Assembly (NCBI GenBank): GCA_044442865.1
Contig: JBISJU010000001.1
Coordinates: forward strand, 31,402-95,401
Length of the DNA stretch: 64,000 bases
DNA from: Candidatus Makana argininalis
Lineage (GTDB): Bacteria > Pseudomonadota > Gammaproteobacteria > Enterobacterales > Enterobacteriaceae
Reading direction: 5' to 3'
Position numbers and translations under genes: made by a program. The notes below the pieces were generated by a model, which was not told the origin of the DNA, did not search any database, and was given only the letters and a program-made list of their open reading frames with translations. Shown here piece by piece: positions 8,305 to 56,477 of this stretch (position 1 is its first letter; each line of letters begins with the position of its first letter).

Positions 8305-10110
8305 TTATTTTAATTTTGATTTTATATAATAATTTAAAACATTATTTGTGGAATACAAAGAAAAATTATTTTTTGAACTATTTATTGCAGTATAAATTAT
8401 TTCTCTTGTGTAAAGATTTGAAATATTATCAGGTAATACTAATGAAGTTTTATTAAAAATAAAACTAGTTGATGTTTTTGCTAGAACAGCAAATGCAGTT
8501 TCATATTTAGGTAAAAAAAATATTTTATCTTTTTTGATTATTTTATTATTTTTCAAAAAAAAAATATTAATATTTTTTTTACTATCAAACATAATTATAC
8601 CAATATCATTTTTATATATTTCTAAATAATTTGAATTTTCAGTAAAAATAATTGGTTTTCCATTATATTCTTTTTTTGAATTTTTTATTTTTACCAACTT
8701 TGTTTTAATAATTAAAAGTTCTATAAAATTATTAATAAAGTTAGAACCAAAAGTACCTTTTTTAATAGCACATAATAATCTAAAATTATAAAATGATTTA
8801 AAAATAGATTTTATTGATTTTTTTTTTTTAATTTTATTTAAATAAAATTTATAATTTTCAATACAATCAAATATCATATTATTATAGTCTTTTTTACTTT
8901 TAATAAAATTAACTGAGATATTTTTAAATTTTTTAGATTTAAGTAAATTTAAAAAGTATTTATACTTTCCATAATTAACTGCATATGATAAATTATTAAT
9001 ATTAGAATATTTTTTAAATATATAATTTTTACGTAATAAATATAATTTTTTTGAAAATAACTTAAATTTTTTTTTTGTATTTTTATTTATATTAAAGTTT
9101 GATAAATTTAAGATAGAAGAATTAAAAATTAATTTATTTAAATTATTAGCGATTTTACATATATCATAAAAAATTGATCCTTTTTCAACAGATGAGATAT
9201 GGTTACTATCACCAAATAATATTATTCTTGTCTTTGGGGATAAAATAGAAATTAAATTATACATTGTTGATAAATTTATCATTGATGCTTCATCTATAAA
9301 TATTATATCTGCATGTAAAAAATTTAAAATTCTATCTTTTAAATAAAATTTAAAATTATTTTTATTAATTAAATAATTAATATTTACAGCTATTTTAGGT
9401 ATCTGTTTTTTTTTTTCACAACTTAGATTCGTATATTTTTTATAAAATTTTATTTTTTTATTTAAATTATTTAAAGATTGAAAATTATTAGATGATATTA
9501 TTATTTTAATGGGTTTTTCATTTAATTTAATAAAACAAATTAATATTTTTAATAAAATACATGTTTTTCCAGTTCTTGATTTTCCTGATATAATAGAAGA
9601 ATGATTAGTTATTGAAATAAAAGCAGCAATTTTTTGCCAATTAATAAAATAATTTTCTGAAATAAAAAACATATTTAATATTTTTAATATATTATTGTAT
9701 TTTTTAACTTTTTTAATAATATTTTTTTTAAAAAAATTTAACACATAAATTTCTTTTCTCCACATTCTATTTATATATAATTTTTTATTATATAAAATTA
9801 TGGGAGTGTTATTAGATCCATTACTTACAGATTTATGTAATAATAAATATTTTTCAAGTTTTTTAGTAGATGAAAAACAAATTTTTTTAATAGAATTTAT
9901 TAAAATATGATTAATATTACCATAAAATATTTTATTAGAAAAAAATATTTTTAAAGGAATATAAGTATGTCCATTTCTTGTATAATAACTCAGACAAGCA
10001 CTTACAAACATTAAAGATGTGTAAGGTTTTTGTGATATAGTTTTAGCAAAATTAATATCTAAAGATTTTAATAAATTTAATTTTAAAATTTCTTTAATTA
10101 TATTTTTCAT
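8305..10110 (-). CDS. recD: exodeoxyribonuclease V alpha subunit
   Basis: 601-aa ORF directly downstream of recB. Walker A GKSRTGKT, DEASMI Walker B-like motif. Length is close to E. coli RecD (608 aa). Confidence 0.85.
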   Translation of the reverse strand: MKNIIKEILKLNLLKSLDINFAKTISQKPYTSLMFVSACLSYYTRNGHTYIPLKIFFSNKIFYGNINHILINSIKKICFSSTKKLEKYLLLHKSVSNGSNNTPIILYNKKLYINRMWRKEIYVLNFFKKNIIKKVKKYNNILKILNMFFISENYFINWQKIAAFISITNHSSIISGKSRTGKTCILLKILICFIKLNEKPIKIIISSNNFQSLNNLNKKIKFYKKYTNLSCEKKKQIPKIAVNINYLINKNNFKFYLKDRILNFLHADIIFIDEASMINLSTMYNLISILSPKTRIILFGDSNHISSVEKGSIFYDICKIANNLNKLIFNSSILNLSNFNINKNTKKKFKLFSKKLYLLRKNYIFKKYSNINNLSYAVNYGKYKYFLNLLKSKKFKNISVNFIKSKKDYNNMIFDCIENYKFYLNKIKKKKSIKSIFKSFYNFRLLCAIKKGTFGSNFINNFIELLIIKTKLVKIKNSKKEYNGKPIIFTENSNYLEIYKNDIGIIMFDSKKNINIFFLKNNKIIKKDKIFFLPKYETAFAVLAKTSTSFIFNKTSLVLPDNISNLYTREIIYTAINSSKNNFSLYSTNNVLNYYIKSKLK

Positions 10111-10146
10111 AATTTTATTATTAAAATAATTTAATTTATAAAATTT

Positions 10147-13100
10147 TTAAATTAATAACTTATCTATATAATTTATTAATTTAAAATTAGGTTTACAATA
10201 AAAAATACCATTATTTTTATTTACATTATTTATACCTCTTAAAAACAAATAATATACACCACCAAAATCTTTTTTATAATTATATTTATAAAGTTTTTGT
10301 TTTAAAAAACGATGAAGTGCTAATGTATAAATTTGATATTGTAAATCATATCTATTGTTAATAATAGATTTTTCTATATTATCTATATTATAAAATTTTT
10401 CATTTTCTCCAAGCCAATTAGATTTATAATCTAAAATATAATATTTTTTATTCCATCTAAAAACTAAATCTATAAACCCTTTCATCATACCTTTTGTTTT
10501 TGGAAAATTTATATTTATACATTTATAAGTAATAAGATCATATTTTTTACAAATATTTTGTAAATTATTTGTAAAAAAAAAATCCTTAATAGGAATATAA
10601 AAAGAAAATTCATTACATTTATCTTTGGATTTTATTTTTTTAAGTGAAAGATCATTATTATCCAAATTATAATCAATAATATTTTCAATCCATTTAATTA
10701 TTACATTTTTCCACATTATATCAATATTTTTATTATTCATTATTTTATTTAAAAAATGTAAACTTATTTTTTTTTTAAAATTTATATTTTTAAGCAAAAT
10801 ATGTAAAAAATTACCTGTTATTTTTCCAGTAGGAAAATTATGTTGGTTTAAAGTTGCAATTTTAATTTTTTTTTTTTTAGAATTTTTAAATATATCTATT
10901 TTGGGTAAAGTTATATTTTTAATATATTTTAAATTTCTATTTAATGATGAATAACTAATAATTGTATCATTAACTATATTAATATTATTAATATTTTTTT
11001 TTTTTTTAAATTTTAATAATGTATTTACATTATGATTTTTTTTTTTTTTATTAAAATATTTTTTTTTACTTATTATAATATCTCCTTTTGATTTTTTAAC
11101 TAAAAATTTTATTTTATTTTCTAAAAAATTAATATCTCCAGCAACACCATTTTGAATTAAATAACCAATAGCACTTTTATGAACACTATTATTATTTGTT
11201 TTTCGATTTTTTCCTTTATGTAAAGATGATATTCCTATACTGCAATGATATATTGATCTTGTTAAAGATACATAAAGAATTCTTAAGTCTTCTGCAAGTC
11301 TCTCAATATCTATTTTATTAATTGAAATTTTTGAATTTAAAGAATTTAAATAAAATATATTTTTTTTAATTCTATAATCGGCAATAAATGGTAAAAAAAC
11401 TATTGGAAATTCCAAACCTTTTGATTTATGTACAGTTATTATATTAACAAAATTGTTATTATTTTTTAAAATTGATGTTGTATTTTTCAAATATTTATTA
11501 GATGAGTATATTTTTTCTTCCAATAATCTAATTATTGATAATCTATTCTCAAAATGTATAGATTCTTCTTGTAATAATTCACCTAAATGCATTAAATTTG
11601 AAAATTTTTTTTCACCTTCTTTTAGAAATAAAAGTTTTTTTTTAATTTTATAATCTTTAATTAACTCTTTTATCATAGGATGTATACCATATTTTTTCCA
11701 TATTATTTTATATTTAATAAATTTATTTAAATGATAATATAATATTTTTTTATTTTTATTTAACATTTTAATTTCATTAAAATCAAAACCAATAATATCT
11801 GTTATCAGAGCTTTCTTAATATATAAATTATTAGTATACAAAACTGCTTTTAATATCCACATTAAATCAACTGATTCTTTAGATTTAAATATATTTTCAC
11901 TTTTAGATATAAATATTGACGGTATATTAAATTTTGTTAATGCATTACTAATTAAATTAGCTTCATTTCCATTTCTTATTATTATTGTTATATCAGAGGC
12001 AGTAATATATTTTTTACCAAAATTTCCTTCTATCCATGTTTTTTTTTTATTTGAAGAATTTATCCAAGAAAAAATAGTATTTGCACATTTATTAGACATA
12101 TATTTTTTATATTCATGTGAATTTACTATAATATCCGGTTGTATCCAAATATTCATAGCAGGATAAATTTTGTTATTTACTATTAGTTTTAATTTTTTAT
12201 TTTCTTTGGAGTATTTTAATGGTACAAATGAAATTTCTTTAAAAATAAAAGGATTGGAAAATGAAGTAAATAAATTATTAACAGCATTAATCATTCCTTT
12301 AGAAGAACGCCAATTAACATCAAGAGTATAATGATTATTTATTTCATTTTTAGCTCTAATATATGTTAAAATATCAGCACCCCGAAAACCATAAATAGAT
12401 TGTTTAGGATCACCTATAATTAAAAAAAAACAATTTTTATAACCTATATATATTTTTTTAAAAATATTATATTGCTTTAAATCTGTATCTTGGAATTCAT
12501 CAATTATTGCTACTGGATATAATTTACGTATTTTATTTGATAATTTTGATCCAAATTTTCCTTGAATGATTTTTTCTAAAATAGTAATTAGATCATTAAA
12601 ACTAATTTTTGATCTTCTATTTTTTTCTTTTATAATATATTTTTCAATTTTGAAAACAGAAAATAAAAAAATTTCTTTTTTTATTGATAAATTATCTAAA
12701 TAGTAATTTTCAATTATTTTAAATAAAACAAAATTTTTATTATTATTTTGAATATTATTTTTAAATAAATTTGATAATTTAAATTTTGATAATTCATTAG
12801 GAACTTTATCATCAATTGTAGGTTCATTAGCCCATTTATCAATTTTATTTAACCATTTAATTATATTTTTTTTACTATAAATTTTTTTATTTATGTTAGA
12901 ATTATATATAAATTTTCTAAATAAAGAAAATTTAATCCAATTTTTTTTTAATAAATTAATATTTGATATTATATTTTTATATATTTGAATTATTGAATAA
13001 TTTTTTTTTGATAAATTATATTTTTTGTTTAAATTAATATTTAAATAGGGTGATATATTAATATAAAAATTTTTAGGATTTTTCCAGTATTTTTTTATTA

Positions 13101-13635
13101 ATATAGCTATATTATAAGGTAAAACAGAAAAATTTTTATTCCAGAAATAATAAGTTGATGTATATTTTAAAATTGATTCATCTTCTATAATCTCTTTATC
13201 AAATATAATACCAGATTGTACAATATTTTTATTTAAAATTTTTTTACAAAAACCATGAATAGTATAAATAGATAATTCATTTATTTTATTTTTAGCTATA
13301 ATTAATAATAATTTAGCTATTTTAATATTTTTTATTTTTTTAAATAATTTCATAATTATATAATTATTACTTTTTTTTTTAATACATTCATTATATAATA
13401 AATTTATGTTCTCAATTATACGATTTTTAATTTCATTTTTTGCTAATTCAGTGAATGTTACAATTAATATTTTGTCTGCTTTTATAGGTTTAAAATGATT
13501 TTTACTTATCATTCCTAAAATTAAACGTAAATATAATATAGATATAGTATATGTTTTTCCTGTTCCTGCTGATGCCTCTATTAATATATTTCCAAATAAA
13601 GGTAAATCAATTGAATTAAAAATTTTTTTAATCAT
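10147..13635 (-). CDS. recB: exodeoxyribonuclease V beta subunit
   Basis: 1162-aa ORF. N-terminal UvrD-type Walker A (EASAGTGKTYTI), DEFQDTD, and C-terminal nuclease motif GFIDLVF...ILDYKSN. Confidence 0.92.
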   Translation of the reverse strand: MIKKIFNSIDLPLFGNILIEASAGTGKTYTISILYLRLILGMISKNHFKPIKADKILIVTFTELAKNEIKNRIIENINLLYNECIKKKSNNYIIMKLFKKIKNIKIAKLLLIIAKNKINELSIYTIHGFCKKILNKNIVQSGIIFDKEIIEDESILKYTSTYYFWNKNFSVLPYNIAILIKKYWKNPKNFYINISPYLNINLNKKYNLSKKNYSIIQIYKNIISNINLLKKNWIKFSLFRKFIYNSNINKKIYSKKNIIKWLNKIDKWANEPTIDDKVPNELSKFKLSNLFKNNIQNNNKNFVLFKIIENYYLDNLSIKKEIFLFSVFKIEKYIIKEKNRRSKISFNDLITILEKIIQGKFGSKLSNKIRKLYPVAIIDEFQDTDLKQYNIFKKIYIGYKNCFFLIIGDPKQSIYGFRGADILTYIRAKNEINNHYTLDVNWRSSKGMINAVNNLFTSFSNPFIFKEISFVPLKYSKENKKLKLIVNNKIYPAMNIWIQPDIIVNSHEYKKYMSNKCANTIFSWINSSNKKKTWIEGNFGKKYITASDITIIIRNGNEANLISNALTKFNIPSIFISKSENIFKSKESVDLMWILKAVLYTNNLYIKKALITDIIGFDFNEIKMLNKNKKILYYHLNKFIKYKIIWKKYGIHPMIKELIKDYKIKKKLLFLKEGEKKFSNLMHLGELLQEESIHFENRLSIIRLLEEKIYSSNKYLKNTTSILKNNNNFVNIITVHKSKGLEFPIVFLPFIADYRIKKNIFYLNSLNSKISINKIDIERLAEDLRILYVSLTRSIYHCSIGISSLHKGKNRKTNNNSVHKSAIGYLIQNGVAGDINFLENKIKFLVKKSKGDIIISKKKYFNKKKKNHNVNTLLKFKKKKNINNINIVNDTIISYSSLNRNLKYIKNITLPKIDIFKNSKKKKIKIATLNQHNFPTGKITGNFLHILLKNINFKKKISLHFLNKIMNNKNIDIMWKNVIIKWIENIIDYNLDNNDLSLKKIKSKDKCNEFSFYIPIKDFFFTNNLQNICKKYDLITYKCININFPKTKGMMKGFIDLVFRWNKKYYILDYKSNWLGENEKFYNIDNIEKSIINNRYDLQYQIYTLALHRFLKQKLYKYNYKKDFGGVYYLFLRGINNVNKNNGIFYCKPNFKLINYIDKLLI

Positions 13636-13676
13636 ATAATTTATTTTTTTTCAAATATTTTATTTTAATAAAAATT

Positions 13677-16600
13677 TTATATTTTATTAAATTTTAACAT
13701 TGGTAATAAATATTTTTCAAATAAAAAAAACATTTCATTTATATTTTTTTTATTTAAATGTTTAACAACTTTTTTAATGTAAATATTATTATATTCAGAA
13801 TAAAATTCTTTTTTTTGATTAAAATATTTTATTATTTGTTCTCCAACTTTTTTTTTAATATTAACATTTTTATTTAAAGTTTTATTTTTACTATTATAAC
13901 AATATTGTTTCCATATATTACTTGAACTATAAAATAACAATAAAGGTTCTAAAATTCCTTTAAAATAACCTAAAATATAAAACATTAATAAATTTTTAGC
14001 TTTTTTTTTTTTAACAGGTAAAAAATTCCACTCTCCATTTATAAAAAACATAATACTATTTTTTTTTCCATCATATAAACAATAAATTAAATGTTCTATC
14101 CATAAAATTAAACCATCTTTAATTGATATTTTTTTTGTACTCCATTTAATTATTCTATCTTTATAAAAATTATCAATCCACCCAATTAAAGTTATATTTT
14201 TAAAATTTAAACACACTTCTAAAGTTCTTTTTTTTAAAATATTAAATATTTTTATTTTATTATATAAATTAATTAATTTTTTATATTGTTCTAAAAAAAA
14301 TATTTTTCCAAATATTCCGTATTGTAGTAATCCAGAATATTTTATTTCATTAAATATTTTATTTATATTATTTTTTTTTATAATTAAATTTAATATTTTT
14401 TCTTTAATTTTGAAATTTGTGAAAATATTATTTAAATAATCTTTTTCATATGAACTTTCTATAAATGATTTATTAAAATAAATTTTTAAATTATTTATAA
14501 ACCATGTTTTAATAGGGTTATTATAAAATTCAATAATATCTTCTAGTTTTAATATTTTATTTTTAAAATTTAATAATAATTTTGAATTTAAAGATAAATC
14601 ATATTTTAATTTTAATAAATTTTTTTTAAAATAATTTTTTTTTTTTTTTAAAAAAAATGTATTTTTTTTTAAAAAAAAATTTATATCATGAAATTTAAAA
14701 ATATGTTTTATAATATTATTTATAATCTGTTTCTCTTCTAAATATTGATCTCCTTCAATATAAAAATTATTTGATATATAATAAATTAATTCATTCACAA
14801 ATGTAGAATTAGTATTAATATTATTATTTTTAATATCATTTCCAATAAAACTTACATAAAAAATATCTTTAGCAGATAAAATAGACTCTAAAAAATAATA
14901 CTTAAGATTTTCTAAAATATTAATATCACCAATTCTTGGATGTTTAAAAATCAAATTATAATTATTTTTATATTTTTTCTTTTGTATAATATTATCATTA
15001 ATTCCTAATATACATACTATTCTAAAATTTATAGAAGACATAGATTTTAAATTACAAAAATTTATTTTTCCAAATAAAAAATTATTTATTATTTTTTTTT
15101 TATTTAATTTATTAAATAATTCTTCTTTAATTAATTTTACAGAAATTTTTTCTTTAAATTTAGATTTAATACAATATTTTAATATTTTTTTCCATGTACT
15201 TTTAATAAGTGTTAAAATATTTTCTTCCTTGGGGGAAGTAGCATAAAAAAAAGAAGATATAATTTTTTCAGAAATTGAACACCAATATTTTATTTTTCTA
15301 GGTTTTAAAAGCTTTTTTTTAAAATATTTAATATTATTTATTAAATCATAAAATTTACCTAATAAACATGACGATAATCCATATGTCTTATCATATGGAA
15401 GAATTTTATTCCAAGATCCGAACTCACTATTCATTGCATAACCTAAAAACATTCTATTAAATCCAAAATCCCATGAATTTAAATTATTAATATTTTCAAT
15501 AAAATTATTATCTTTTTTTTCTTCATCTAATTCTAATTTAATTCCTGATTCTAATACCCATCTATTTAATATATCAATTTCTTTATTTTTGATATTAAAT
15601 TTACGTGATATAGATTTTACTTCTAAAAATTTTAAAATTTTTTTTGCAGATAATTTAATAAATGGTAAATCTAATAATTTCATAAAAGATAATGATATTA
15701 AATTAATTTTTTTCGATTCAATATCTGAAATATAAAATGGTAAATTATTTTTTAAATTATAATTTCCAAATATAGATTTAATTGATGCTACATAATTCTT
15801 TATATTTGGAGCCATTACAATAATATTTTGTGGTTTTAATGTTACATCTTTAGACATAATTAATAATAATTTATCATATAAAATTTCTATTTCTTTGTAA
15901 TAACTGTAACAAGCATTAATATTAATAGAAAAATCTTTTATTTTTATCATTCTTTTTAAAATTTTATTTTTATAAATATGTTTTTTATTTTCAGATGAAT
16001 AATTTTTTAAAATAAGAATGTCTTTTTTAATTAAATTTAAAATATTATTTTTAATAGGTTTAATAAATGCATTTATTTCTATAATTCTATTTAAATTAGA
16101 AATTAAATATATATATTCTTTACATTTCTTACCCCATGAAGAAAGAAAATAATTTCCTAAATTAGGTTTACTTATATAATTCAATAATACAGATTTTGTT
16201 TTATTATTTATAAAAATTATATTATTATTTTCTTTTATACATTTGTTTATTATTTTTTCAAAAAAATTAAAATCTTCTATATCTCCCCAATAATGTTTAC
16301 ATGGATTTATAAACATATTATGAATATCCATAGAATTTCCTAATAATTCTAATAATTTAATATAAATAGGAGGTAATGAAGATATTCCAAAAATAAATAC
16401 TCTATTTGGTAATTTTATATTTTTTCTTTTTTTGTTTTTTATAATATTTTTAATATTATTAAAATTTTTATCATGTTGTAAAATTAATTCATTATAATGT
16501 ACTTTATTATTTATTAATTTTCTCCATAAAAAAGATTGCCAAATCTGATCTTCATCCAAATTTTTTATTAATTTTCCTTCTTTCCAAGATTTTAACCAAT

Positions 16601-17030
16601 CAGGACGATATATTCTGTATTGATTAAAAATATAAGCTAATTGAGTAGAAAATTTAAATTTTTTTAAAATATCATTATTTTTTAAAAAATATTTAATTTT
16701 TAAAAAATATTTATTATTTAATATATCAGGTATTAAAGAAAAAATTTTCCATGTCATAATAGAATTATTACAAGTATATTTATATTTTATATTAGGTAAT
16801 AAATTAGAAATAACATTACATATAAATTTCGAAATAGTAATAAATTTTATATTTGCATATATACCAAGTTGTTCTGATAATTTAATTTTTATCCAATTTG
16901 CAATATTTTTATTTTTAACTATAATTATTTCTGGTTTTAAAGGATCATTTTTTTTTTTTTTAACAGATATTAATAAAGAAATAATTATCTTAAGCATATC
17001 TGTGCTATTTGAATGATATATTATAAACAT
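13677..17030 (-). CDS. recC: exodeoxyribonuclease V gamma subunit
   Basis: 1117-aa ORF upstream of recB-recD. Length matches E. coli RecC (1122 aa). ptrA, which sits between recC and recB in E. coli, is absent. Confidence 0.88.
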   Translation of the reverse strand: MFIIYHSNSTDMLKIIISLLISVKKKKNDPLKPEIIIVKNKNIANWIKIKLSEQLGIYANIKFITISKFICNVISNLLPNIKYKYTCNNSIMTWKIFSLIPDILNNKYFLKIKYFLKNNDILKKFKFSTQLAYIFNQYRIYRPDWLKSWKEGKLIKNLDEDQIWQSFLWRKLINNKVHYNELILQHDKNFNNIKNIIKNKKRKNIKLPNRVFIFGISSLPPIYIKLLELLGNSMDIHNMFINPCKHYWGDIEDFNFFEKIINKCIKENNNIIFINNKTKSVLLNYISKPNLGNYFLSSWGKKCKEYIYLISNLNRIIEINAFIKPIKNNILNLIKKDILILKNYSSENKKHIYKNKILKRMIKIKDFSININACYSYYKEIEILYDKLLLIMSKDVTLKPQNIIVMAPNIKNYVASIKSIFGNYNLKNNLPFYISDIESKKINLISLSFMKLLDLPFIKLSAKKILKFLEVKSISRKFNIKNKEIDILNRWVLESGIKLELDEEKKDNNFIENINNLNSWDFGFNRMFLGYAMNSEFGSWNKILPYDKTYGLSSCLLGKFYDLINNIKYFKKKLLKPRKIKYWCSISEKIISSFFYATSPKEENILTLIKSTWKKILKYCIKSKFKEKISVKLIKEELFNKLNKKKIINNFLFGKINFCNLKSMSSINFRIVCILGINDNIIQKKKYKNNYNLIFKHPRIGDINILENLKYYFLESILSAKDIFYVSFIGNDIKNNNINTNSTFVNELIYYISNNFYIEGDQYLEEKQIINNIIKHIFKFHDINFFLKKNTFFLKKKKNYFKKNLLKLKYDLSLNSKLLLNFKNKILKLEDIIEFYNNPIKTWFINNLKIYFNKSFIESSYEKDYLNNIFTNFKIKEKILNLIIKKNNINKIFNEIKYSGLLQYGIFGKIFFLEQYKKLINLYNKIKIFNILKKRTLEVCLNFKNITLIGWIDNFYKDRIIKWSTKKISIKDGLILWIEHLIYCLYDGKKNSIMFFINGEWNFLPVKKKKAKNLLMFYILGYFKGILEPLLLFYSSSNIWKQYCYNSKNKTLNKNVNIKKKVGEQIIKYFNQKKEFYSEYNNIYIKKVVKHLNKKNINEMFFLFEKYLLPMLKFNKI

Positions 17031-20649: not shown

Positions 20650-22495
20650 TTAATCATCTAAAAAACTTCTTAATATTTCTGATCTGCTAGGGTGACGTAA
20701 TTTACGTAAAGCTTTTGCTTCTATTTGACGAATTCTTTCTCTTGTAACTTCAAATTTTTTACCCACTTCTTCTAAAGTATGATCTGTATTCATATCTATT
20801 CCAAATCTCATACGTAAGACTTTAGCTTCTCTAACAGTAAGACCTGCTAAAATATTATTAGTAGCATATCTTAAACTATCTGATGTTGCAGAATCTAATG
20901 GTAATTCAATGTTATTATCTTCAATAAAATCACATAAATGTGCATCTTCATCATTACCTATTTGTGTTTCCATAGAAATAGGTTCTTTAGCGATTTTTAA
21001 AACTTTTCTTATTTTATCTTCTGAAATCATCATTCTTTCAGATAATTCTTCTGGTGTTGGTTCTCTACCTATTTCTTGAATAATTTGTCTTGAAGTTCTA
21101 TTTAATTTATTTATAGTTTCAATCATATGTACTGGTATACGTATTGTACGAGCTTGATCAGCAATTGATCTTGTAATGGATTGGCGTATCCACCATGTTG
21201 CATAAGTAGAAAATTTATAACCACGTTTATATTCAAATTTATCTACAGCTTTCATTAACCCTATATTTCCTTCTTGTATAAGATCTAAAAATTGTAAACC
21301 TCTATTTAAATATTTTTTAGCTATAGATATAACAAGACGTAGATTAGATTCAACCATTTCTTTTTTTGATTTAATAATGTTTATTTTTCCTATAAAAATA
21401 CTTCTATTTATATTTTTTAATTGTCTAATTGTTAGTTTTGTTTGTTTTTCAATTTTATTTAATTCAAATGTATTAACATTTATATCTTTATTTATTTTTT
21501 TTAATTTAATTGACCATGGTGTATTACAAGAAATTGCATAATTAAACCAATTTATTGTTTTATTATTATTATTATTATAAATTTTTACAAAAGTTTTTTT
21601 TGGCATATTACATTTATAAATACATAACTTTATTATTTTATTTTCTTGTATTTTTATTTTATTCATAATAATACTAATTTTATTCATAAGAAAATTCAAT
21701 TGTTTATGAGATAATTTAAATTGTTTAAATATATTATTTAGTTTTTTAATTTCTATTAATGCTTTATAATGATTTCTACCATATTTTTTTATTATTTTTA
21801 TTGTTATCTTGTTTTGTGCACTTAATGCTATAAATTTTTTATTTGCTATTTTAAAATTAATTTTATTATAATTATTCATTCTTTCTTTATTTTTATTATT
21901 ATGTTCTTCTATATTATTTCCAAAATATTTTTCTTTTTTAGATAATTCATTTTTAATATTATTTATTAAAAACAATTCTTTTGAATTTTTATCTATAATA
22001 TTAGATATTACATCAGTTAATTTTATTTTACCTTTTTTAATGTATTCATATTGTTTTAATATATAAATCACAGTATTTGGATATTTAGATATAGATATTC
22101 TAACATTATTTATTCCGTGTTCTATTCGTTTAGATATATTTATTTCTTGTTTTCTATTTAATAAATCAACTGTTCCCATTTCTTTCATATACATTCTTAT
22201 TGCATCATTTGTTTTATATATTTCTGAATCTGAATTTGAAATACATTTATGTGATTCATGTAATATATGTGTATGATAATTATTTTTTTTATTTAAAATA
22301 ACATTATGTAAATTAATATTTTTTTCTATAATTTTTATGCCAATTTTATTAATAATATTAATTATATTTTTAATATTAATATGTTTTTTAAAATCAGCTT
22401 TAATATGATTGTTAATTTGTGAAAAAGTTAAATAACCTTTTTTTTTACCAATTTTAATAAGTAAATTTGTGTTTGTTTTTTTTTTTTTTTTTCAT
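20650..22495 (-). CDS. rpoD: RNA polymerase sigma-70 factor RpoD; the N-terminal ~100 codons are out of frame with the only ATG across an A17 tract
   Basis: The ORF track gives 514 aa from an internal Met (22194), with regions 2-4 almost identical to E. coli sigma-70. The same frame stays open and region-1.1-like up to 22492. The ATG at 22495-22493 is followed by A17 (T17 on the + strand, 22476-22492) and is 1 nt out of frame. The span is 1846 nt, i.e. 615 codons + 1 nt. Confidence 0.93.
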
Positions 22496-24341: not shown

Positions 24342-24405
24342 AATATTTATAATACTATTGAAAAATAAACATAAATATTTATTTTTCAATAGTATTATAA
24401 ATATT
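24342..24405. repeat. perfect 28-bp inverted repeat with an 8-nt loop between rpsU and dnaG
   Basis: Base-by-base pairing of 24342-24369 with 24378-24405 has no mismatch. The loop is CATAAATA. Confidence 0.9.
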
Positions 24406-28852: not shown

Positions 28853-28916
28853 AAATTTAAACATTATTTATATAATTAAATAATATAATTTAATTATATA
28901 AATAATGTTTAAATTT
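28853..28916. repeat. perfect 29-bp inverted repeat with a 6-nt loop in the rne/rluC divergent intergenic region
   Basis: 28853-28881 pairs without mismatch with 28888-28916. The loop is AATATA. Confidence 0.9.
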
Positions 28917-32369: not shown

Positions 32370-32588
32370 ATGTCTAAAAATCACAATTTCGAAATAAAAG
32401 GCACTGTTATTGAAACATTACCAAATACTATGTTTAAAGTAGAGTTAGATAATAAACATATTGTAATTGCTCATATTTCAGGTAAAATGAGAAAAAATTA
32501 TATAAGAATATTAAATGGAGATAAAGTTATAGTTGAGGTTACACCATATGATATAAATAAAGGAAGAATAATATTTAGGAATAAATAA
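32370..32588 (+). CDS. infA: translation initiation factor IF-1
   Basis: 72-aa [41 protein letters not shown] is nearly identical to E. coli IF1. Confidence 0.96.
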
Positions 32589-32683
32589 ATCATTTATAAA
32601 ACCAAATTATTTAAATAATAAAATTATTTTTTTAAAAAAATAATTTTATTATTTAAATAATTTGGTTTTATAAATGATTTATT
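32584..32683. repeat. 100-bp perfect loopless palindrome (two 50-bp arms, centre T7/A7)
   Basis: Every position p in 32584-32633 is complementary to position 65267-p. The right arm encodes the last ~19 codons of tsaB. The left arm starts inside the last sense codon of infA. Confidence 0.95.
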
Positions 32684-36987: not shown

Positions 36988-38063
36988 ATTTTTTCCTTAT
37001 AACATTATATTAAAAATAATCGTTTTTTAAATAAAACCAATGTATGATTTTTTATCATATGCTATTATTTATATATATCATATATTTTAAATTTAGATTT
37101 TTTACGTTTATAAATATAATAAAAATATGTTTTCATTTAATTTAAACAATTAAAGTATTTATATATTATATTTATAATATTAATATATTTTTAAAATTTT
37201 TAAATTTTTTTTTTATGTTTGTTAATTAACACTTATTTATAATATAATTATTTGTATCTCTATATGTTTAAATAACTAAATCAAATAAATCATCACTGAA
37301 ATTAAAATATTTTATTAAAAATTAAAATTTTTAAATACTTTAGTATATATAATTATATTAAATATATTTAATTTTTAAATTTGTTTAGTAATATTAAAAA
37401 TATATAATTTATTGACACTGACTAATAACTATAATTATTTTATAATCATTATAACATATTTATATCTTTTAAAAAATGAAATATATTTAATTTATTCATA
37501 TATTATTAAAATTTAATTATATTAAAAATATAAATTAATAATTATAAACATATCAAAATATTTTATACTATTATTAATTTTTTTAAAAATAAACTTTTTT
37601 TAACTAATATTATACTAATTTTAATTAAATTAAAAATTTTTTATAAATAACAAAATATTTTGATATATAATTTTTTGATTTACTAAAAATATTGAATATA
37701 AATATGTTTTCAATATTTTTTTTAATATATTTTGTAAATAAATTAAAAGAATTACTATAAATCATTTTAATACATATTTATTTAATATATTTAAAATATA
37801 AATTTTTAATAAATTAATAATTTATAATAGTTATAAATTATTAATGTATATATTTTTTTTAAACAAAAATTAATTTTTGTTTTCAAATTTTTTTATAAAT
37901 TTTTAAAATATTAAATTTCATTTTAATTATAAATATAAAATAATATAAATTATTTTAAAATAACTTTAATTTAATTTAAATTATTTAATTTATAATAAAT
38001 AAATTTTATTTTATTTGTAAAATTTAAAAAATTAAATAAATTCATATAAATATTTTATAATAT

Positions 38064-38303
38064 TTATTTTTTTAATTTAAATTTTATACAATTAATTGCT
38101 TCTTTTATTGTAGTAATTTGTTCAAATTCTTCATCTTTAATTTCTAAATTAAAATTTTCTTCTAAAGATATTATTAATTCTATAATATCAAGAGAATCAG
38201 CACCTAAATCTTTAATAAATGATGTATTATATGAAATACTTTTTGTGCTTACTCTAAATTGTTTAGAAATAATTTTTTTTATTTTGTCTTCTATTTTATG
38301 CAT
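38064..38303 (-). CDS. acpP: acyl carrier protein
   Basis: 79-aa ORF with the phosphopantetheine site DLGADSLD. Downstream of fabG. Confidence 0.95.
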   Translation of the reverse strand: MHKIEDKIKKIISKQFRVSTKSISYNTSFIKDLGADSLDIIELIISLEENFNLEIKDEEFEQITTIKEAINCIKFKLKK

Positions 38304-40344: not shown

Positions 40345-41374
40345 TTAATTTAAAATACAAAATGGAGTTTTTATGTTACAAAAAATATAAATTATATTTA
40401 AAATATCATTCCATGCTTTGTATTTATAATCTGTTTTAATTAAAAATTCTATTTTACGAATTAAAGTTAATATTTTAAATAAATCAAACATTGACATATT
40501 AAATATTAATTTTTTATAAATATTTTTTAGTTTATTACAATAAATGTTGTTAATTTTAAAAATCATTTTTAATTTAGTGTTATTTATTTTTTTTTTCATA
40601 TTTATTAATTTAATAATACTATTTTGAATAATTCTAATTATTAAAATTGGTTCAATTAATTCATATTTGAATTTGTTTAAAATTTTATTTAAATTATTAA
40701 TATTTCCATACATAATTAAATATATTAATTTATATGAATTAACTTCACAAATATTATCTAATGAATATAATAAAAATTTTAAGTTTATCAATTTTTTATT
40801 AAAAATTATTTCAAGACTGTTTAATGATTTATTAATTAATAATAAATTTCCATCATAATAATTATATAAATAATCTAAAGCATTATAATTTATTAATATT
40901 TGTTTTTTTTTAATAATTAATTTTAATAACTTAAATTTATTATTTTTATTTATATCAGAACAATTAATTATTATTATATTTTTACAAATTAATTTTAACC
41001 ATAAGGAATTTAAAATTAATTTGTTTAAAACATTAATTTCAAAAATTATTAATATATTTTCTTTTATATTTAAAATTAAATCTTTTATTTTTTTGTCTAT
41101 TGTATAATTGTATATGTTTTTATTAAATTTTATTAAAATTATTTTATTTTCATAAAATAAATTTTTTTCATTTATTGAAAAAAAAATATTTTTCCAATCT
41201 GTTTTAAAATTTATTAAAAAAGATAATATTTTTTTAAATTTTTTTTTTTGATAATTTAATAATATTTTTTTTACTTTCTTCTAATAAAAATTTATTTTCA
41301 CCATATATTAAGTAAAATTTATTAAAATATTTTTTTGAATTTTTAATTAAATCATATGTAAATATTGTAATCAT
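40345..41374 (-). CDS. holA: DNA polymerase III delta subunit, interrupted by a frameshift in an A11 tract
   Basis: The minus strand from ATG 41374 reads MITIFTYDLIKNSKKYFNKFYLIYGENKFLLEESKKNIIKLS, then A11 (T11 on the + strand, 41239-41249). The shifted frame FKKILSFLINFKTDWKNIFF...YYDGNLLLINKSL runs uninterrupted into the 148-aa ORF. The 1030-nt span is 343 codons + 1 nt. Position is downstream of leuS, as in E. coli. Confidence 0.8.
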
Positions 41375-41472
41375 AAATATATTTATTCTTAAATATTTTG
41401 TATTATGTTATTTTAATAAATTTTACTTAATATATAAGTAAACATTCAATATAATAAATATAAATATTTAAT

Positions 41473-44044: not shown

Positions 44045-45364
44045 TTATTTACTAAATTTAAAATTTTTATTATTTTTAACTTCTAATACACCATTATAAA
44101 TAGCTTTATTTTTTAAATTTTCTTCTATTCTGATTAATTGATTATATTTAGCAACTCTTTCAGATCTACTCATTGAACCAGTTTTTATTTGTCCAGATGA
44201 TGTACCTACAGATAAATCAGCAATTATAGTATCTTCAGTTTCTCCAGATCGATGTGAAATTATAGTAGCATACCCATGTTTTTTAGCTATTTTAATTGTA
44301 TTTAAAGTTTCAGTTAATGATCCAATTTGATTTGCTTTTATAATAATAGCATTGACAATTTTATTTTTTATACCTTTTTTTAAAATATTAATATTTGTTG
44401 AAAACAAATCATCACCTACAAGTTGAATTTTTTTACCTAATTTTTTTGTTTGGTAAGAAAAACCTATCCAATCTTTTTCATGTAAACCATCTTCTATGGA
44501 AACAATAGGATATTTTTTGGTTAAATTTTCCAAATAATTAGTAAATTCTTTATAGTTAAAATTTTTATTTTCATTTTTTAATTTATACAAATTATTATTT
44601 ATATCAAATAATTCTGATGCTGCGCAATCTATAGCTATTGTTACTTCTTTTCCTGTTTTATATCCTGAAATTTCTATAGCTTCTTTTATTAATAAAATAG
44701 CTTCTTCATTAGAAGATAAATTTGGAGAAAAACCACCTTCATCACCAACACCTGTATACATGTTTCTTTTTTTTAAAATATAATATAAATTATGAAATAT
44801 TTCTGAACCTATACGTATAGCCTCTTTAATACTTTTAGCTTTAATTGGTTGAATCATAAACTCTTGTATATCTATATTGTTATCTGAATGAACACCACCA
44901 TTAATTATATTCATCATAGGTAATGGTATAGTAAATTTATTAGGAGTTTCATTCAAATCAGCTATATGAGAATATAAAGGTATATTTTTTGAAAGTGCCG
45001 CAGCTTTTGCTAAAGCAAATGAAACTGCTAAAATAGCATTTGCTCCTAAATTCATTTTATTATCAGTTCCATCTAAATCTATCATAATTTTATCTAAATC
45101 TGATTGATAAATTGCATTTTTACCAATTAATGATGGATATATATATTTGTTAATAGAATTAACTGCTTTTTTAACTCCTTTTCCTAAAAAACGAGTATTA
45201 TCACAATCTCTAAGTTCTAATGCCTCTAAAGATCCTTTTGAAGCTCCAGATGGTACAGAAGATATACCAATAAATCCCCCTTTTAAATGAACTTCTGCTT
45301 CTACAGTAGGATTTCCACGAGAGTCAATTATTTCACGTCCAATTATTTTTACAATTTTTGCCAT
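44045..45364 (-). CDS. eno: enolase
   Basis: 439-aa [30 protein letters not shown] and [10 protein letters not shown] are almost identical to E. coli Eno. Confidence 0.97.
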
Positions 45365-45376
45365 AATTATTCCTTT

Positions 45377-45474
45377 TTTTTTTAAAAATTTGTAATATTT
45401 ATAATATAATTATATATTAATTTATAAAAATTAATATATAATTATATTATAAATATTACAAATTTTTAAAAAAA
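45377..45474. repeat. 98-bp perfect inverted repeat (47-bp arms, 4-nt loop) filling the eno/sufA divergent intergenic region
   Basis: Every position p in 45377-45423 is complementary to position 90851-p (45428-45474). The loop is ATAA. Confidence 0.95.
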
Positions 45475-45492: not shown

Positions 45493-45822
45493 ATGAATAA
45501 TAAAATTATTATAACTAACGCTGCTGCAAAACAAATTAATTTTTTATCCAAACAAGATTCTTCTATGATTGGATTACGTATTTTATTAAAAAATTCTGGA
45601 TGCGCTGGATTTAAATATTTATTAAAAAAAGTTAAAGTTATTAAAAATCATTATAAAATATATGAACACCAAGGGGCTAAAATATTTGTTTCATCTAAAA
45701 TTTTATTTTTTATAAGTGGAACAGAAATAGATTATGTTAAAAAAAAATTAAAAGAAGAATTTAGATTTAATAATCCAAAAGCAAAGTATTATTGTGGTTG
45801 TGGTAAAAGTTTTGGAGTTTAA
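45493..45822 (+). CDS. sufA: Fe-S cluster assembly scaffold/carrier SufA
   Basis: 109-aa A-type carrier. C-x(n)-CGCG motif (SGCAGF...CGCGKSFGV). First gene of the suf operon. Confidence 0.9.
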   Translation: MNNKIIITNAAAKQINFLSKQDSSMIGLRILLKNSGCAGFKYLLKKVKVIKNHYKIYEHQGAKIFVSSKILFFISGTEIDYVKKKLKEEFRFNNPKAKYYCGCGKSFGV

Positions 45823-55164: not shown

Positions 55165-56262
55165 TTAAATATTAATATTAATTATTTTAAATTTTTCTAA
55201 AAAATTTAATTTACATAAATAAAATTTATTTATTATTTTATCTGATAATTTATAAAAATTTTTTATTATCTTTTTTTTTTCAAAAATAAAATTTTTATCA
55301 AAAAAAATACTATTTAAAATTCTTAAAAATATATTTTCAACCCATATTTTATATGAAATATTTGTAATTAATTTATTTAAAATACAAGATGTAAATTTAT
55401 TAACTTTACTAATTTTATATGATACAAAAATAGAATATTTAAAAGAATAACCTGTGGTATTATTTAACAAACCAGCTCTCAATCCACTACAAGGAATTTT
55501 TATATTTTTAATAAAAAAATTAAAATTATTATATATATAAATAGGAATTATCCCTTTTTCTTCTTTTCTAATATTTTTGATATTAAAGTTATTTTTTTTT
55601 AAAAATTTTAATATATTACTGTTATTAATTTTAGTATTTAAATTTAAATTATTTAAGTAAATTGTATCTTCAATAAAAATTGAATATGGAGAAATTGGTA
55701 AAATATATAAAAATCTATATCCATTTTTTTGATTAATTTTAGAATCTATAATAATTGGATTTTTAATATTATGATTTATATTAAGTTGAATTTCTTGACC
55801 AAAAAAATATTGAAAATAATATTTTATATTATTATTTTTTTTATAACCACGGCCGTCAATTATTATTTCTGCATTTAATATTAAATTATTATTTAATTTT
55901 AAAGTATGATCACTTAAAATACTAACAACATACTTAAATAATATTTTTTTTTTAAAAAATTTATTTATAAATTTATAAAATTTATATGAAGTAATAGTTA
56001 AATATTCTTTTTTTATTAATCTTCTATATTTATTAAAATTTACAATATATGTAGGCCAAAAATAATCAATAATTGGCAATAACCAATTATTTTTAATTAA
56101 TAAATTATTGGTAAGGTGAAAAGACCATTTTTTGTTGTTTTTTATATTTTTTTTTTCAATTAATAAAATATTTAACTCGGGAAAATATTGTTTTAAACGA
56201 ATAGCAATAAGTCCATTAGATAATCCCACACCGATAATAATTATACTGAAATATAATTTCAT
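55165..56262 (-). CDS. crtY: lycopene beta-cyclase, CrtY type (stand-alone)
   Basis: 365-aa intact ORF, collinear with Pantoea CrtY as I remember it: IIGVGLSNGLIAIRL / LVGAGLANGLIALRL; WSFH; WPTYIVNF / WPDYQVRF; IIDGRGY / VIDGRGY; QNGYRFLYILPISP..IEDT / QNGYRFVYSLPLSP..IEDT; CSGLRAGLLNNTTGYS / CSGLRAGLFHPTTGYS. Confidence 0.8.
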   Translation of the reverse strand: MKLYFSIIIIGVGLSNGLIAIRLKQYFPELNILLIEKKNIKNNKKWSFHLTNNLLIKNNWLLPIIDYFWPTYIVNFNKYRRLIKKEYLTITSYKFYKFINKFFKKKILFKYVVSILSDHTLKLNNNLILNAEIIIDGRGYKKNNNIKYYFQYFFGQEIQLNINHNIKNPIIIDSKINQKNGYRFLYILPISPYSIFIEDTIYLNNLNLNTKINNSNILKFLKKNNFNIKNIRKEEKGIIPIYIYNNFNFFIKNIKIPCSGLRAGLLNNTTGYSFKYSIFVSYKISKVNKFTSCILNKLITNISYKIWVENIFLRILNSIFFDKNFIFEKKKIIKNFYKLSDKIINKFYLCKLNFLEKFKIININI

Positions 56263-56304
56263 ATATATTATATTTAAAGTTTAATAATAAATATATTATT
56301 TTTA

Positions 56305-56395
56305 AATTTATAATATTGTTATTATATTTATAAAATTAATTATTTATTAATATTAAGTATTTTATATTATAAATATAATAACAATATTATAAATT
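56305..56395. repeat. perfect 29-bp inverted repeat with a 33-nt spacer between lon and crtY
   Basis: 56305-56333 (AATTTATAATATTGTTATTATATTTATAA) is the exact reverse complement of 56367-56395. Confidence 0.9.
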
Positions 56396-56477
56396 AAAAA
56401 GTATTTAAAAAAATTAATCTTTTTAATAAAATATATATAATAATTAAATTATATATTTAAATTTTTTAAATATTAAA

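Follow-up and report, generated by a model that had tools for sequence, protein, structure and literature searches.

The spacer between the divergent eno and sufA genes of Candidatus Makana argininalis is largely occupied by a perfect palindrome of 98 bp, made almost entirely of A and T. We propose that this DNA palindrome maintains itself, template switching during replication (quasipalindrome correction) keeping its arms identical and producing the mirrored promoter hexamers as a by-product; we put the probability of this reading at about 0.6. The palindrome is real and belongs to a set of intergenic AT palindromes specific to this lineage, and nothing in the comparisons below shows it to be a purpose-built switch between eno and suf.

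The DNA analysed, called the window here, is a 64-kb stretch with 18.6% G+C from a genome of ~277 kb and ~18% GC. Makana is a co-symbiont of Hawaiian Pariaconus psyllids, and its strains split within about 3-3.5 My (PMC11425488). Five genomes were compared: that of the window (WIN) and the four sister metagenome-assembled genomes (277-287 kb) SJT (JBISJT; L001, L087), SJS (JBISJS; L081, L086), PLQ (JBPPLQ; L082, L084), and SJR (JBISJR; L083, L085). Coding p-distances among the five are 8-12%; the window enolase is 86-88% identical to the enolases of the four sisters, all of which share the eno-sufA gene order. The identities assigned to eno and to sufA with its suf operon in the preliminary description of this DNA are correct (Table 1). 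A search of a plasmid database with eno as the query gave no match.

The two arms are complementary at 47 of 47 positions around the 4-nt ATAA loop, with no mismatch, just as had been described from the letters alone. The palindrome takes up 98 of the 128 nt of the intergenic spacer, leaving 12 nt on the side of the eno Shine-Dalgarno and, again as described, 18 nt upstream of the sufA ATG (45493). Its left limit had been placed 2 nt beyond the eno Shine-Dalgarno; this holds when AGGA alone is counted, but the full AAAGGA motif (45371-45376) directly adjoins the left arm.

Table 1. Palindromes, related repeats, and flanking genes in the window, with the form of the eno-sufA palindrome in each of the five genomes
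Feature	Position in window	Strand	Description
eno (phosphopyruvate hydratase)	44045-45364	minus	TIGR01060, E = 5.8e-191; start codon 45362-45364
eno Shine-Dalgarno AAAGGA	45371-45376	minus	left limit of the palindrome in the window genome
eno-sufA palindrome, left arm	45377-45423		47 nt, all A/T but one G; abuts the eno Shine-Dalgarno
eno-sufA palindrome, loop ATAA	45424-45427		TATAAA across the centre on both strands: 45423-45428 (plus), 45426-45421 (minus)
eno-sufA palindrome, right arm	45428-45474		47 nt; outer part ATTACAAAT
sufA	45493-45822	plus	heads a complete sufABCDSE operon running to 51055
infA/tsaB palindrome	32584-32683		50 + 50 nt, no loop, 100 bp perfect; convergent junction
rne/rluC palindrome	28853-28916		29-nt perfect arms, 6-nt loop; divergent spacer
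rpsU-dnaG palindrome	24342-24405		28-nt perfect arms, 8-nt loop; between rpsU and dnaG
holA/leuS inverted repeat	41303-41329 and 41409-41435		27-nt perfect arms, 79-nt spacer
crtY-lon quasi-palindrome	56297-56403		53-nt arms, 87% complementary, outer 29 nt perfect
eno-sufA in WIN			perfect arm 47 nt, loop 4 nt
eno-sufA in SJS			perfect arm 54 nt, loop 0 nt
eno-sufA in PLQ			perfect arm 54 nt, loop 4 nt
eno-sufA in SJT			perfect arm 28 nt, loop 1 nt
eno-sufA in SJR			12-nt core only, loop 4 nt, within a ~205-nt stretch ~77% self-complementary

Arms of 47 nt in 64 kb cannot be chance. In 30 simulated 64-kb sequences per null model, with loops of up to 12 nt allowed, the longest perfect arm was 11-16 nt under a first-order Markov model, 11-18 nt under a third-order model, and 16-22 nt in pure 50/50 A/T sequence, so the observed arms lie far past the chance expectation of 11-22 nt. 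A simple effect of AT-richness is ruled out both by these simulations and by loci from other tiny AT-rich symbionts: about 110 kb from Stammera, Buchnera, and others (16-25% GC) contains essentially no perfect arms of at least 18 nt. Since comparably AT-rich symbiont DNA is nearly without such arms, the palindromes are a trait of Makana and not an effect of base composition. Folded as RNA, the element reaches -45.7 kcal/mol (z = -13.4 versus shuffles); as single-stranded DNA, it reaches -39 kcal/mol (z = -11.4 versus shuffles).

The eno-sufA element is not alone. Four perfect palindromes with arms of at least 28 nt are present in the 64 kb, and the class is found at divergent, convergent, and tandem gene junctions. 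The window palindromes are not copies of one another. Others are strain specific: in SJR, a perfect palindrome with 42-nt arms lies between dnaB and rne (L085 8323-8406), and in SJS, one with 33-nt arms lies between acpP and tgt (L081 17366-17435 = L086 19240-19309). With such strain-specific members, every lineage shows turnover of the class. The rpsU-dnaG palindrome of SJR has 37-nt arms (L085 5263-5336) and, by eye, looks homologous to the 28-nt one of the window. A perfect hairpin of another kind is found in the tsaB-manZ spacer of SJR (L085 14613-14667); its arms are 25 nt long with the G+C core AAACCGGGTT…AACCCGGTTT, and it resembles a conventional terminator stem more closely than the other palindromes. 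Next to the crtY-lon quasi-palindrome, the lycopene beta-cyclase gene crtY (window 55165-56262, minus), which adjoins lon, suggests a capacity for carotenoid biosynthesis in the symbiont.

Several familiar identities were considered and set aside. A dispersed palindromic repeat (REP/BIME, RPE, or MITE-like) or a mobile element does not fit, because the arms are locus specific: in about 230 kb of Makana DNA searched, an arm finds no match beyond itself, its mirror, and the orthologous junction. The element is not an intrinsic (rho-independent) terminator, as there are no terminator-like sites, the stem has a single G-C pair, and it lies between two gene starts. Nor is it a replication origin; matches to the DnaA box are at chance level with none near the element, and GC skew tracks gene orientation only. 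Rfam covariance models, at the gathering score, found only five tRNAs in the window and no family at the element.

Comparison of the five genomes separates what is kept at this junction from what changes. The preliminary description had named conservation in sister genomes as a check, and it holds for position: a palindrome lies in the same spacer in all four sisters, perfect in three and degenerate in one. Its sequence, length, and loop vary. The arms are homologous across the genomes, with a common core near AATTATATATTAATTT, and the palindrome was most probably already present in the common ancestor of the Ca. Makana argininalis strains sequenced. In four genomes (WIN and three sisters), the left arm begins 0-8 nt from the eno Shine-Dalgarno motif; the distance from the palindrome centre to eno varies by genome from 39 to 184 nt, and that to the nearest sufA-type start from 67 to 139 nt. 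MAFFT alignment of whole spacers was uninformative in all-A/T sequence, and we used centre-anchored alignments of the arms instead. The self-complementarity of the SJR stretch is near the baseline for all-A/T spacers, since a spacer made only of A and T matches its reverse complement at 70-80% identity whatever its history, which masks the decay of imperfect palindromes. The SJS spacer (L081 9662-9861) also carries a direct duplication of about 140 bp, consisting of 51 nt upstream of sufA and the first 89 nt of sufA, which gives a truncated extra sufA start.

Within this conserved position, the two arms change together. A centre-anchored alignment of the SJS and PLQ arms spans about 51 nt and shows 7 substitutions and two 1-nt indels, and since both palindromes are perfect, all of these differences are mirrored in both arms. 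Independent evolution of the arms at the between-genome rate should have left each palindrome with roughly 5-9 mismatches, yet four genomes have none. The 28-nt arm of SJT corresponds to the distal part of the SJS arm, and this looks like a central deletion of an SJS-type arm. The rne-rluC palindrome is found in orthologous form in four of the five genomes. A single mirrored change, T to G in one arm and A to C in its partner, separates PLQ from SJT, and WIN has a mirrored 1-nt insertion together with a mirrored A/T swap; all three variable pairs, insertion included, are complementary. In SJS, the interior of this palindrome has decayed.

Two further loci show the source of an arm. The right arm of the infA/tsaB palindrome is conserved tsaB 3' coding sequence, which SJR has in one orientation only, and the left arm is an inverted copy of tsaB codons that fills the spacer up to the infA stop codon. 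At the second locus, the repeat unit 41303-41329 corresponds to holA codons 15-23, conserved as coding in all sister genomes, and its partner 41409-41435, in the leuS-holA spacer, is a perfect 27-nt inverted copy of those codons that is present in WIN only and absent from the four sisters. Both cases are inverted duplications of constrained coding sequence into adjacent non-coding DNA. They match what a template-switch event produces, with the coding arm as the donor. At eno-sufA, SJS and SJT have one copy of the ATTACAAAT block of the WIN right arm, lying beyond the palindrome, which would suggest that the left arm of WIN was overwritten. SJR carries the TTTGT/ATTACAAAT block on the left (opposite) side, so an older, larger palindrome is equally possible and the direction of arm extension is ambiguous. 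At its C-terminus, TsaB itself is five residues longer in WIN (…NNKIIFLKK; window 32624-32641) and in SJR (…NNKIFFKKK; near L085 13877) than in the other three genomes; these residues are encoded inside the palindrome region, so turnover of the palindrome may have changed how the protein ends.

We imagine that the arms fold into a hairpin when the region becomes single-stranded in replication, and that a nascent 3' end then primes on the complementary arm, either in its own strand or across the fork. Copying one arm from the other in this template switch would turn any mismatch or indel into a perfect mirror image. The same reaction could extend the repeat outward into its flanks, and growth would halt at essential sequence, here at the eno Shine-Dalgarno to the left and at the start region of sufA to the right. 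Arm identity would then be kept by copying at the DNA level, not by selection base by base. Quasipalindrome correction has been characterised in E. coli (PMC7202029), and template switching has been proposed to create and maintain perfect stems (PMC8794818). The eno-sufA element is a closely spaced reverse-complement repeat with perfect pairing (47/47, loop of 4), and mirrored multi-base changes, indels among them, distinguish orthologs at both eno-sufA and rne-rluC. Arm-to-arm copying fits the overall pattern: arms without mismatch that end abruptly, strain-to-strain turnover in sequence, length, and loop, indels mirrored in both arms, and fresh inverted copies of coding sequence.

Such palindromes must also be tolerated. 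E. coli tolerates long palindromes only when SbcCD is absent, and the tolerance of 100-bp palindromes in Makana probably needs the absence, by loss, of SbcCD-type hairpin nucleases. The homogenising step itself may take other forms, mismatch correction in an extruded hairpin or recombinational conversion, which are possible because recBCD is intact and mutS is kept. The recD, recB, and recC genes are full length and intact at window 8305-17030 (minus), in a genome of ~277 kb, and the lineage is reported to keep recBCD and mutS, unusually for recBCD (PMC11425488). The genome is thus not fully repair-less, and the retained recBCD may be relevant to the handling of hairpin-induced breaks.

The main rival to template copying as the reason for perfect arms is selection for a structural element, with template switching only supplying the variation. 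The structure could be an RNA hairpin in the eno and/or sufA leader, acting as a shield against RNase E or in tuning translation, or a cruciform formed under the negative supercoiling of divergent transcription. Palindromes are kept at the eno-sufA, rne-rluC, and infA-tsaB junctions in four or five of the five genomes, while most spacers in the compared region have only background arms of 8-14 nt and its two largest non-coding stretches (1062 and 593 nt) contain no palindrome in the window; this pattern could reflect selection for structure. The closeness of the left arm to the eno Shine-Dalgarno is in keeping with such a role, and the rne-rluC palindrome similarly ends 10-22 nt before the rluC start. 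Several members lie where hairpins would be useful, at convergent gene ends and at rpsU-dnaG, a junction at which E. coli has an internal terminator. RNase E (rne) is retained, the hairpin is very stable, and the Blochmannia authors argued that palindromes decay without selection (PMC3017870).

Other observations fit this rival poorly. A single mismatch in a 47-54-bp stem should have an almost negligible effect on fitness in a small-population symbiont, yet the arms are perfect and their indels mirrored. Arm length, loop, centre position, and sequence all vary by strain; SJR lacks a perfect palindrome at this junction, yet its eno and sufA are intact; new copies are made from coding sequence to no evident purpose; and the region has no match to an Rfam family. 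Stepwise compensatory selection is implausible, since one mismatch in a 50-bp stem hardly matters where whole genes decay, tgt being gone from the window and holA frameshifted. We regard a selected structure as a possible but doubtful explanation, and prefer arm copying by template switching.

As to the decayed genes themselves, tgt (queuine tRNA-ribosyltransferase, 368 aa in all four sisters) has no detectable remnant in window 36988-38090, and about 1.1 kb of non-coding DNA with 13% GC lies between hspQ and acpP. The holA gene (DNA polymerase III delta; window 40345-41374, minus) is split by a frameshift at an A11 run at about 41240-41250, its second frame having 301 intact codons, and is also called as two ORFs in SJR (L083 13992-15022). 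The frameshift may mean that holA is truly a pseudogene, that transcription slips at the run, or that the homopolymer was misread in sequencing.

That brings us to the promoters. The preliminary description reasoned that any promoters of eno and sufA must lie inside the repeat and be mirror images, and for this strain the logic is sound: with only 12 and 18 nt outside the repeat, any promoter in the spacer lies in the palindrome and is automatically mirrored. It went on to suggest mirror-image sigma-70 promoters firing across the centre, such that the eno polymerase would exclude the sufA polymerase, giving a mutually exclusive or co-regulated switch. The hexamers it cited, TTGTAA-17-TATATT, are present where it placed them and on both strands, almost all of the WIN spacer lies inside the palindrome, rpoD is encoded in the window, and TTGTAA holds the only G of the arm, in a block recognisable in the sisters. 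The match scores only 9/12, however, and two better ones (10/12) occur in the same arms, TTTAAA-18-TATAAT and TTAAAA-17-TATAAT. The region has 13 promoter-like matches where 4.8 are expected, an excess that reflects the saturation of all-A/T DNA with such matches; the description itself cautioned that hexamers are weak evidence in A/T-only DNA.

The sister genomes also speak against a switch. TTGTAA is mirrored in WIN only; SJS and SJT have a single copy beyond the palindrome, PLQ has TTTAAA in its place, and SJR has it on the opposite side only. The palindrome centre in the sisters is TTTTTTAAAAAA or TTTTTTTTAAAA/T8A4, not TATAAA, and no hexamer arrangement is kept in the five genomes. Palindromes of the same kind also occur at convergent and tandem junctions, where a divergent switch would be senseless. 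Because no hexamer arrangement is conserved and the distance from centre to gene varies widely, we read the promoter symmetry as a side effect, and the comparison does not support the proposed switch, which we consider very improbable. In WIN, the eno and sufA leaders would consist of identical single arms or carry the full hairpin, which we likewise regard as a by-product and not as a conserved switch. An effect of a hairpin leader or a cruciform on expression in individual strains is possible.

Characterised bidirectional promoters offer a useful comparison. Like the eno-sufA spacer, with TATAAA across its centre on both strands, they are divergent control regions with symmetric DNA, which allows RNA polymerase to bind in either orientation (Warman et al. 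2021; PMC10268837), and the central TATAAA of WIN could in principle act as a symmetric -10 element of this type. The architecture is otherwise unlike: these promoters share a pseudo-symmetric -10 within about 20-30 bp of pseudo-symmetry and fire outward from divergent start sites 7-25 bp apart, with a mode of 18 bp (PMC10268837), whereas the Makana element is perfect over 98 bp and the hexamers first cited point inward. On the side of the polymerase, the rpoD frame (window 20650-22494, minus) stays open, with conserved sequence, from the position of codon 13 in the sister proteins onward. It has no ATG, GTG, or TTG before about codon 100, so rpoD would either have a non-canonical start or encode a sigma-70 without region 1.1.

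One can also envision a combination of mechanism and function. Arm homogenisation at a high rate, specific to this lineage and possibly tied to the retention, unusual for a <300-kb genome, of RecBCD and MutS, would have supplied the palindromes, and those at eno-sufA, rne-rluC, and infA-tsaB would have been co-opted as cruciform or hairpin controls in place of lost transcription factors. Expression of eno and suf, for example, might be coupled by supercoiling-dependent extrusion of the promoter-bearing 98-bp AT cruciform. We think this distinctly unlikely, and keep to homogenisation with the promoter symmetry as its by-product.

The perfection of the arms is that of short-read assemblies, and a real palindrome could have been made to look perfect by fold-back end-repair during enzymatic fragmentation or by collapse of the arms in a de Bruijn graph. 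The sister libraries were made with the NEB FS enzymatic fragmentation kit and assembled with MEGAHIT; such libraries yield reads that perfect near-palindromes (PMC10908179), and palindromes disturbed both assembly and Sanger sequencing in Blochmannia (PMC3017870). The artefact reads were reported at low allele fraction, however, and so should not dominate a consensus (PMC10908179). At the same junction, the five assemblies have palindromes that differ in sequence, length, and loop, and the contigs run on into unique sequence that differs between the two sides. At 98-112 nt, the entire palindrome falls short of k = 141, the value that the contig name suggests, and the same assemblies retain imperfect palindromes, for example that at 56297-56403 with 87% complementarity. 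We give an artefact of library or assembly hardly any weight. Such palindromes can nevertheless mislead short-read libraries and assemblers, and they deserve validation at the level of reads.

The closest precedent for the Makana palindromes is found in Blochmannia, an ant endosymbiont with intergenic palindromes of 62-136 bp (Williams & Wernegreen 2010, PMC3017870). That survey counted palindromes of at least 30 bp with a gap of no more than 20, no more than 3 mismatches, a total of about 60-140 bp, and an intergenic position (PMC3017870); the eno-sufA element, at 98 bp with a gap of 4 and 0 mismatches, is intergenic and one of several per genome. Both hosts of such palindromes are AT-rich, reduced insect-symbiont genomes with several palindromes each, almost all intergenic, with small gaps and few or no mismatches. 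They differ in that Blochmannia belongs to an ant lineage while Makana is a psyllid co-symbiont of ~277 kb, and in that five related Makana genomes show positional conservation with mirrored sequence change. The Blochmannia authors suggested selection; for Makana, the two inverted copies from coding sequence into spacers favour mutational maintenance.

The closest mechanism is template switching at quasipalindromes, known from the Ripley model, from E. coli lacZ quasipalindrome reporters (PMC7202029), and from RNA hairpins (PMC8794818). There, too, one arm templates the other, an imperfect repeat becomes perfect, and multi-base "compensatory" changes are made in one event, which the mirrored changes in Makana match. 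The known cases have stems of about 10-20 nt or are inferred in structural RNA genes, whereas the Makana arms (28-54 nt) are purely intergenic and would have been renewed repeatedly in several lineages by the mechanism we propose. A further likeness is to the human palindromic AT-rich repeats (PATRRs) and to the long palindromes that SbcCD cleaves in E. coli. Palindromes of this kind are nearly perfect and AT-rich, extrude as hairpins or cruciforms, and mark hotspots of rearrangement (PMC1851657). Central deletion and asymmetry are their typical routes of decay, and SJT resembles a central deletion; PATRRs differ in being 190-600 bp long and eukaryotic.

What is new here is the multi-genome evidence for concerted evolution of palindrome arms. 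Five genomes that split within about 3-3.5 My, together with at least three loci, amount to a natural replicated experiment on the persistence of perfect stems, and bear on the long-standing problem of where hairpins come from and what keeps their pairing perfect. Stepwise compensatory selection can hardly account for mirrored indels in 54-nt arms when the symbiont population is small, and templated copying fits them. For annotation, the lesson is one of caution: any palindrome in an all-A/T spacer will bring mirror-image "promoters" with it, and these should not be taken for regulatory design. The tiny genomes of such symbionts are not static; their non-coding DNA undergoes inverted duplication, palindrome growth, central deletion, and decay.
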